Below are positions 41,001 through 41,604 of a DNA stretch of 45,587 nt, one piece after another. How positions within the stretch are numbered: position 1 is the stretch's first letter; each line of letters begins with the position of its first letter. A program made the position numbers and the translations under genes. This DNA is from a virus (taxonomy: Duplodnaviria; Heunggongvirae; Uroviricota; Caudoviricetes): IMG/VR virus record IMGVR_UViG_2597489870_000004, one strand, 5' to 3'. The notes beneath the pieces were generated by a model, which worked only from the letters and a program-made list of their open reading frames with translations, was not told where the DNA came from and ran no database searches.

Positions 41001-41058
41001 TTTCTGGTGACGTTTGGCGGTATCAGTTTTACTCCGTGACTGCTCTGCCGCCCTTTTT
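41001..41058 (+). ncRNA. dicF: DicF small RNA (ftsZ-targeting antisense sRNA) with intrinsic terminator
   Basis: tttctggtgacgtttggcggtatcagttttactccgtgactgctctgccgccc followed by TTTTT matches the remembered DicF sequence; located just upstream of dicB. Confidence 0.75.
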
Positions 41059-41227
41059 AAAGTGAATTTTGTGATGCGGTGAATGCGGCTGAGCGCACGC
41101 GGAACAGTTAAAACCAAAAACAGTGTTATGGTTGGATTCTCTGTATCCGGCGTTAATTGTTAACTGGTTAACGTCACCTGGAGGCACCAGGCACCGCATC
41201 ACAAAACTCATTGTTGAGGGCGCGATA

Positions 41228-41416
41228 ATGAAAACGTTATTACCAAACGTTAATACGTCTGAAGGTTGTTTTGAAATTGGTGTCACTATCAGTAACCCTG
41301 TATTTACTGAAGATGCCATTAACAAGAGAAAACACGAACGGGAGCTATTAAATAAAATATGCATTCTTTCAATGTTGGCCCGTTTACGTCCGATACAAAA
41401 AGGATGCTGGCAATGA
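41228..41416 (+). CDS. dicB: Cell division inhibitor DicB
   Basis: 62 aa MKTLLPNVNTSEGCFEIGVTISNPVFTEDAINKRKHERELLNKICILSMLARLRPIQKGCWQ, matching remembered DicB. Confidence 0.8.
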   Translation: MKTLLPNVNTSEGCFEIGVTISNPVFTEDAINKRKHERELLNKICILSMLARLRPIQKGCWQ

Positions 41417-41604
41417 ATACAGCATTTGCACTTGTTCTGACAGTTTTTCTTGTTTCCGGAGAGCCAGTTGATATTGCAGTCAGTGTTCACAGGACAATGC
41501 AGGAGTGTATGACTGCAGCAACCGAACAGAAAATTCCCGGTAACTGTTACCCGGTCGATAAAGTTATTCACCAGGATAATATCGAAATCCCGGCAGGTCT
41601 TTAA
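41413..41604 (+). CDS. ydfD: YdfD-like small protein with N-terminal hydrophobic segment (lysis-associated in K-12)
   Basis: 63 codons; ATG overlaps dicB stop (ATGA); MNTAFALVLTVFLVSGEPVDIAVSVHRTMQECMTAATEQKIPGN... Confidence 0.7.
   Translation: MNTAFALVLTVFLVSGEPVDIAVSVHRTMQECMTAATEQKIPGNCYPVDKVIHQDNIEIPAGL

Follow-up and report, generated by a model that had tools for sequence, protein, structure and literature searches.

A Qin-like DicF-dicB-ydfD module in a probably capsid-defective prophage of Escherichia coli ETEC H10407

Results

The module and its surroundings

The interval 41001-41604 of the window (the whole stretch of DNA that we analysed, 45,587 nucleotides) runs exactly from the first base of the small RNA DicF through the stop codon of ydfD. 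The window is identical at 45,587 of 45,587 bases to positions 1289847-1335433 of the ETEC H10407 record NC_017633.1, on the reverse strand, and makes up most of a prophage of about 47 kb that lies between potB and potC. The features considered here are the following, with the evidence for each in brackets:

17588-18560, minus strand: remainder of the capsid gene E (junction translation)
18561-21259, minus strand: IS66-family element of 2.7 kb, with tnpA, tnpB and an ISCro1-like transposase (PGAP, junctions)
21261-21320, minus strand: codons 1-20 of E, MSMYTTAQLLAANEQKFKFD (junction translation)
38663-38905, minus strand: Cro-like regulator, divergent from the repressor gene (Pfam P22_Cro, E 1.1e-15; PGAP)
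38997-39635, plus strand: cI-type repressor of 212 aa, putative HTH and peptidase S24 (Pfam S24; alignments)
39702-39719, plus strand: putative OL palindrome, TGTTTT-N6-AAAACA (repeat search)
39720-39748, plus strand: pL-like, sigma-70-like promoter, TTGACC-17-TAAACT (promoter scan)
39928-40080, plus strand: ydfA-like DUF1391 gene, first of the leftward operon (Pfam DUF1391, E 1.4e-27)
40060-40679, no strand assigned: mosaic cassette of 620 bp that replaces ydfB-ydfC of Qin (no homology to Qin or Tritos)
40092-40421, plus strand: cassette ORF, phrog_6937 (PHROG)
40390-40665, minus strand: convergent cassette ORF of 91 aa, with AGGAGG before its start
40680-41000, plus strand: DicF precursor region, non-coding in K-12 (homology to Qin and Tritos)
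41001-41053, plus strand: DicF small RNA, 53 nt (Rfam RF00039; identity to K-12 b1574)
41054-41227, plus strand: predicted structured leader between DicF and dicB (predicted folds; sub-threshold RF02076)
41228-41416, plus strand: dicB, 62-aa division inhibitor acting with MinC (Pfam PF05358, PGAP)
41413-41604, plus strand: ydfD, 63-aa lysis protein (Pfam DUF1482 PF07358, PGAP)
41698-44169, plus strand: exonuclease of 823 aa with a C-terminal DEDDh 3'-5' domain (Pfam, PHROG)
44231-44500, plus strand: excisionase, xis (PGAP; weak Pfam Exc match)
44469-45587, plus strand: integrase, int, whose stop codon is the end of the window (PGAP)

When the whole window was searched with the Rfam model RF00039, a match was found at 41002-41053 on the plus strand, covering model positions 1-52 of 52 with 76.7 bits (E 2.6e-15; the gathering score is 48). 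The segment 41001-41053 is identical at 53 of 53 positions to dicF (b1574) of K-12 MG1655; besides the stem, the single-stranded 5' part and the loop are conserved at 100%. Folding predicts a terminator hairpin at 41016-41052 (-15.9 kcal/mol), followed by UUUUU at 41054-41058. The initial annotation had proposed a 53-nt DicF with its own terminator at this place, and the hairpin, the U-run and a score above the gathering threshold agree with it.

The same annotation had named divergence of DicF at the positions that pair with ftsZ as the observation that would speak against it. We found none: DicF equals that of K-12 throughout, and the ftsZ leader of the host (-80 to +40) is likewise identical between H10407 and K-12. 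Compensatory mutations have established the pairing of DicF with ftsZ in K-12 (PMC5069750), and since both partners are identical to the tested K-12 pair, this result should transfer directly to H10407. A duplex-energy calculation gave a predicted DicF-ftsZ duplex that contains the published pairing; its energy (-38.5 kcal/mol) was however equalled by 65 of 500 shuffled DicF sequences and was discarded as evidence. Because shuffled DicF did as well, the argument for pairing is based on identity to the tested pair, not on energy.

The product of dicB matches the Pfam DicB family (PF05358) with residues 1-62 on profile positions 1-62 of 62 (126.9 bits, E 2.3e-37), and PGAP names 41228-41416 "cell division inhibition protein DicB". 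It shares 56 of 62 residues with K-12 DicB, and five of the six substitutions fall within the C-terminal 16 residues. The gene starts 175 nt past DicF (a spacer of 174 nt). Its stop codon overlaps the ATG of ydfD in the sequence ATGA (41413-41416), exactly as in K-12. The ydfD product matches DUF1482 (PF07358) with 92 bits (E 2.1e-26), is identical to K-12 YdfD at 61 of 63 residues, and is named "lysis protein YdfD" by PGAP.

The order and spacing of DicF, dicB and ydfD in the window are the same as in the Qin prophage of E. coli K-12, and the DNA from 40680 to 42464 is 97.5% identical to Qin. Rfam, Pfam, identity to K-12 and synteny thus all agree with the earlier proposal of a DicF RNA, dicB and a YdfD-like peptide in Qin order. 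Sequence identity, gene order and family membership are all direct observations on the window.

The DicF precursor and the dicB leader

Homology to both Qin and the phage Tritos begins at 40680, 320 nt upstream of DicF, with 97-99% identity. Since the Qin-like block begins that far upstream, the precursor and processing region is conserved. In K-12, RNase III cuts the polycistronic RNA to generate the 5' end of a 190-nt species, RNase E generates the 5' end of the 53-nt DicF, and transcripts have one of two ends, past dicF or past ydfD, giving a 1146-nt species and a 1608-nt read-through species, respectively (PMC10448788). A fold of 40670-41060 predicts a duplex between about 40802-40810 and 40856-40864. 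The 190-nt species would start near 40864, at the end of this predicted duplex, which agrees with an RNase III site.

The leader that separates DicF from dicB is also predicted to be structured. In both the minimum free energy and the centroid fold, two distant segments (roughly 41059-41083 and 41194-41218) pair into a stem of about 27 bp, which has small hairpins within it and ends about 10 nt before the Shine-Dalgarno sequence of dicB. A local search with the Rfam family STnc100 (RF02076) matched 41065-41205 on part of the model (21-154 of 206) with 39.6 bits (E 1e-6), and relatives of the leader score 33-44 bits. As the gathering score of RF02076 is 47, membership in STnc100 was rejected and the element was treated as a related structured leader. 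A preprint links the STnc100 prophage RNA family to the PasD small RNAs (10.64898/2026.05.13.724894). Across the leader alignment, 47 consensus pairs showed 0 compensatory double changes, the sequences being too alike; the structure remains a prediction because of this lack of compensatory covariation.

A homologous leader of about 150 nt was also found in front of kil or kilR rather than dicB, in Rac-SA53, Shigella phage 75/02 Stx, PhiR5_2, Evi, phiSTEC1589 and pPE4. The 5' and 3' thirds of the leader are nearly invariant across the dicB-type and the kil/kilR-type copies, and the sequence junction falls some 20 nt ahead of the start codon. Rac-SA53 in addition has a weak, sub-threshold DicF-like hairpin (41.1 bits). 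From these sequences, the leader looks like a common front end for alternative division inhibitors.

Putative promoter and operators, and the repressor

The pL-like promoter lies downstream of the repressor gene and is directed toward DicF, and its -35 element adjoins the palindrome at 39702-39719. In the 45.6-kb window this perfect palindrome occurs in two copies only; the second (38980-38997) falls, along with weaker copies, in the control region of the divergent repressor and cro genes. With up to two mismatches allowed, there were 8 matches against 2.5 expected by chance. The operator motif shared by the two regions is thus an observation; the two sites would be OL and OR. We infer that the DicF-dicB operon is of the pL type and is held off by the cI-type repressor, and in K-12 DicA represses dicBp in the same manner (PMC10448788).

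The repressor matches Pfam S24 (E 4.3e-13), while its match to HTH_3 (20.8 bits) is below the cutoff of 23. Residues 6-67 match the 434 repressor (E 1.8e-4) and P22 C2. Ser129 and Lys173 align with S149 and K192 of lambda cI and with S119 and K156 of LexA. At the position of the scissile bond, which in LexA is Ala84-Gly85 (PMC3159453), the window has Ala94-Ala95; this pair aligns with A111-G112 of lambda cI and A84-G85 of LexA, and five of five phage relatives have Ala-Gly. The earlier description of the protein as an SOS-cleavable repressor agrees with the S24 domain and the Ser/Lys dyad, but since Ala-Ala replaces the scissile Ala-Gly, SOS cleavage is unproven.

PGAP annotates only the C-terminal 113 aa of this protein, whereas two phage records give the full 212 aa as cI. 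An identical repressor is present in vB_EcoS-640R1 and 813R8. We considered these as a proof of inducibility and rejected them, the source paper describing prophages in clinical genomes.

Neighbouring genes and state of the prophage

The ydfA-like region upstream of the module is 94% identical to the ydfA region of Qin. It is followed by the 620-bp cassette, found in full in 198 of the 5426 complete E. coli genomes that we searched; in strain 09-02E it is placed after ydfABC. The convergent 91-aa ORF of the cassette had no family match in Pfam or PHROG. Compared with a 96%-identical copy, it differs by three synonymous changes and one non-synonymous change, too few to prove that it is coding.

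Downstream of the module, residues 642-813 of the exonuclease match the Pfam Rv2179c-like family (E 2.4e-67). The match to phrog_2082 extends over residues 1-823 of 823, and the length is the same as in Tritos; on both counts the exonuclease is intact, as had been claimed. It is the intact counterpart of K-12 ydfE, a pseudogene cut by IS2. PADLOC returned no matches to defence systems for the small ORFs, and for the exonuclease it gave only a weak generic DEDDh match. Both xis and int are full length. A 14-bp att core (CACCTTCTTATTCA) is present at both ends of the prophage: adjoining potC, just past the window, and inside the 3' end of potB.

The prophage has lambda-type terminase, portal, protease, D and FI genes, tail genes through J, lom, and tail-fibre genes. 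The initial annotation had assumed a full structural module. This did not hold: an IS66-family element splits the major capsid gene E after codon 20, and it is flanked by an 8-bp target duplication (GTTTGATC). The Pfam Phage_cap_E match begins at profile position 19. Judging from these junctions, the prophage as it stands should not make capsids.

Relatives and distribution

Aiming at the distribution of the module, we searched the 5426 complete genomes with an 851-bp query (40850-41700). It matched 4747 of them (87%), in a median of 2 and a maximum of 10 places per genome; matches to 80% or more of the query were obtained in 3827 genomes. In the H10407 record itself the query matches 2 places.

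Compared with Qin, the window has a similar geometry: a cro-like gene, the repressor, the ydfA-like gene, DicF, dicB, ydfD, the exonuclease, xis and int, against dicC, dicA, ydfA, ydfB, ydfC, dicF, dicB, ydfD, ydfE (an IS2-cut pseudogene) and intQ (a pseudogene) in Qin. There are however several differences. The repressor in Qin is DicA, while that of the window is a 212-aa protein of the cI/LexA type with S24 and a putative HTH. The place of ydfB and ydfC is taken in the window by the 620-bp cassette with its convergent ORF pair. Exonuclease, xis and int are intact in the window, whereas Qin has IS2-disrupted pseudogenes; the 97.5% identity to Qin stops at 42464, the point where K-12 ydfE is cut by IS2. 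Finally, the window has a lambda-type late region, unlike Qin. By its sequence, the prophage is a mosaic of a Qin-type early region and a lambda-type late region.

The module is 97-98% identical in the deposited phages mEp460_ev081, Tritos (OV696610), PhiR42_1 and HannyBb, which share with the window the layout of DicF, dicB, ydfD, an 823-aa exonuclease, xis and int at 95.8-98% identity. In the Tritos record, the stretch that separates ydfC-like ORFs from dicB carries the annotation "DicF antisense sRNA, inhibits ftsZ". Tritos is an active, plaque-forming temperate siphovirus of E. coli LF82 that makes virions (PMC9928086), and its structural genes, unlike those of the window, are free of IS interruption. 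It also differs from the window in its ydfB/ydfC-like ORFs, CI and integrase, and its DicF has the change C53G.

In O157:H7, the prophages CP-933O, M and P and those of strain Sakai have dicBF in lambdoid prophages of 45-80 kb, larger than Qin and often in several copies (PMC5069750). The multicopy pattern in our survey, with up to 10 places per genome, agrees with this. The prophage studied here differs from these in its host, ETEC H10407, and in its site, potB/potC, with no difference in mechanism. The presence of a dicBF module in a large lambda-like prophage is thus already known, since both the Tritos record and the literature document it.

The same place between the immunity region and the exonuclease gene is occupied in other phages by different FtsZ inhibitors: kilR in Rac-type and Stx phages, and kil in lambda. 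Kil/KilR and DicB are unrelated proteins; lambda Kil is reported to act on FtsZ via ZipA (PMC3961180).

Discussion

In our reading, to which we give a probability of roughly 0.93, positions 41001-41604 are a standard copy of the dicBF division-inhibition module of Qin-type lambdoid phages, located in the leftward early operon, and the element that houses it is an E. coli ETEC H10407 prophage that is defective in its capsid but otherwise nearly complete. For H10407, the expression of the module, its processing and its phenotype are extrapolated from work on K-12, and the following scheme is conditional on that work. Transcription would begin when the cI-type repressor leaves the operator by the pL-like promoter (about 39720-39748), and the polycistronic transcript would comprise, in this order, the ydfA-like gene, the cassette ORF, the DicF precursor, DicF, dicB, ydfD, exo, xis and int. 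Read-through of the DicF terminator would yield the dicB-ydfD mRNA. DicF would pair with the ribosome-binding region of ftsZ, repressing FtsZ synthesis, with xylR, pykA and manX as probable further targets of repression. DicB would bind MinC and bring it to ZipA at the septum, so that Z rings are dismantled, and would stop the DNA entry of phages that use ManYZ; action through MinC and ZipA, the block on phages entering via ManYZ, and resistance to lambda are all reported for DicB (PMC6832061). The earlier claim of two independent FtsZ-directed inhibitors would accordingly be right for DicF and DicB, going by the K-12 work. YdfD would be a third toxic product of the module, with a target other than that of DicF and DicB: this lysis protein is reported to act against IspG rather than FtsZ, and DicB offsets the lysis (PMC8835842).

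Besides the duplex energy that did not set DicF apart from its shuffled versions, three observations weigh against this explanation. The convergent ORF at 40390-40665 on the minus strand, upstream of DicF, could interfere with transcription. DicB is a variant that departs from K-12 at 6 of 62 residues, and its binding to MinC is putative. Lastly, the repressor lacks the canonical Ala-Gly bond, which leaves induction by SOS cleavage unproven.

A different emphasis is that the module is kept chiefly for the benefit of the lysogen. The prophage would be grounded and domesticated, and leaky or stress-induced expression would provide exclusion of ManYZ-dependent phages by DicB and metabolic regulation by DicF. 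The capsid gene is destroyed by the IS66-family element and the repressor is without Ala-Gly, yet all ORFs of the module are intact; 87% of complete E. coli genomes have kept the module, often more than once; DicB confers lambda resistance through ManYZ (PMC6832061); and dicBp is activated both by stress and, in a subset of cells, spontaneously (PMC10448788). However, a module 97-98% identical is present in virion-producing phages and so is not specific to decayed prophages, and the 8-bp target duplication has not decayed, as could be expected if the element had inserted recently. The molecular activities would be the same as those proposed above and the two views are compatible; as a statement of why the module is kept, we regard lysogen benefit as a reasonable possibility that we nevertheless lean against.

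That the module is functionally inert, with DicF reduced to a terminator inside the operon and with dicB and ydfD silenced by termination or by the convergent gene, is very improbable: a strong hairpin and U-run do stand between the promoter and dicB, much of the K-12 transcript stops after dicF (the 1146-nt as against the 1608-nt species; PMC10448788), the convergent ORF has a strong Shine-Dalgarno sequence, and Pfam and PHROG recognised no N-like antiterminator between pL and DicF, but the identical terminator of K-12 permits read-through into dicB-ydfD and derepression in K-12 leads to filamentation that depends on DicF and DicB (both PMC10448788), while in the window the conservation of DicF extends beyond the stem alone to 100% of its 5' single-stranded part and loop, and neither the dicB nor the ydfD ORF is truncated.

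Returning to the division-inhibition module of the main reading, the sequence shared in front of dicB and kil raises a further, speculative point. The DicF or DicF-like terminator together with the STnc100/PasD-like leader of about 150 nt might constitute a conserved and portable regulatory platform placed before interchangeable division inhibitors, either dicB-ydfD or kil/kilR. We think this unlikely on balance and propose it tentatively; its carriers, with the same reserve, might be the window, Qin and Tritos for dicB-ydfD, and Rac-type and Stx phages for kil/kilR. If it were true, the stem of about 27 bp could be an RNase III-dependent or a translational gate on a toxic gene, or the leader could release a second Hfq-binding small RNA.

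A strong match to the dicBF module of a cryptic prophage inside a bigger prophage is common. The dicBF operon of Qin is the decayed form of an early-left operon that is whole in lambda-like phages, a point already present in the literature and in phage records. For H10407 itself, the RefSeq feature table of this stretch lists dicB, ydfD and an "exonuclease" but has no row for DicF, an omission that the DicF call usefully corrects. The IS-disrupted capsid gene and the Ala-Ala site of the repressor may also be of interest for work on prophage induction in ETEC H10407.

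The DicF-dicB leader, the DicB allele and the upstream cassette

The spacer between DicF and dicB forms a structured leader that is conserved, with a predicted closing stem of about 27 bp, and it scored as a sub-threshold relative of Rfam family STnc100 (39.6 bits; cutoff 47). In Rac-type and Stx phages this same leader stands in front of kil/kilR, in contrast to dicB in the window, and the exchange point lies about 20 nt upstream of the start codon.

41054-41227, +: DicF-dicB spacer
L013 2500-2680; L014 2590-2775; L017 1505-1690; L018 1700-1885: leader copies in the Rac-type/Stx comparison loci
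40092-40421, +: cassette ORF, phrog_6937, unknown function
40390-40665, -: cassette ORF of 91 aa with an AGGAGG Shine-Dalgarno sequence, without a family

DicB of the window (41228-41416) differs from that of K-12 by six substitutions (Q36H, V47L, L55P, M56I, P57Q and A61W), five of which fall within the final 16 residues. The C-terminus of DicB in phage Tritos, unlike this one, is K-12-like. Where the Qin prophage has ydfB-ydfC, the window carries a 620-bp mosaic cassette (40060-40679), whose two ORFs are convergent and overlapping; the RefSeq version of the minus-strand ORF reaches 40827. Only 198 of 5426 genomes had the full cassette; strain 09-02E carries it downstream of ydfABC, as an addition.

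Repressor, hok/sok pair and tRNA genes

38997-39635, +: cI-type S24 repressor
34866-35037, -: sok antitoxin RNA (Rfam RF01794, 106.7 bits)
30368-30617, -: three tRNA genes, upstream of the lysis genes

Residues 94-95 of the repressor are Ala-Ala, at the position that the scissile Ala-Gly takes in lambda cI, in LexA and in five phage relatives; Ser also replaces Gly ahead of the DSM motif. The RefSeq entry, named "LexA family protein", comprises only the C-terminal 113 aa. The hokD toxin gene adjoins sok, a pair also present in Qin-type early-right regions, and in the related phage Tritos HokD was the prophage gene with the highest expression (PMC9928086). ARAGORN called Arg(tct), Arg(tcg) and one tRNA with a CAT anticodon; RefSeq has just two tRNA genes, with the CAT one labelled tRNA-Ile, and Rfam likewise just two.

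Capsid gene, tail-fibre end and integration site

21261-21320 and 17588-18560, -: lambda-type major capsid gene E, in two pieces
18561-21259: IS66-family element (tnpA, tnpB, ISCro1-like transposase), inside gene E
1-1930 and 2 kb past the left end (45005-48411 of L004, the H10407 chromosome stretch containing the window): tail-fibre-assembly genes in opposite orientations
L004 1190-1203 and 48661-48674: 14-bp att core CACCTTCTTATTCA, at both prophage ends, outside the window

The IS66-family element interrupts gene E after codon 20. The 8-bp target duplication GTTTGATC lies on either side of it, and precise excision would therefore restore gene E. Next to the opposed tail-fibre-assembly genes lie the remnant of a recombinase gene, 195 nt long, and several tail-fibre-assembly fragments that are truncated; the region has the appearance of an invertible tail-fibre (host-range) segment that has decayed. 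The prophage is inserted at the potB/potC junction of the chromosomal potABCD operon. Since int, potC and potD share the same orientation, potCD expression in the lysogen may rely on transcription exiting the prophage.
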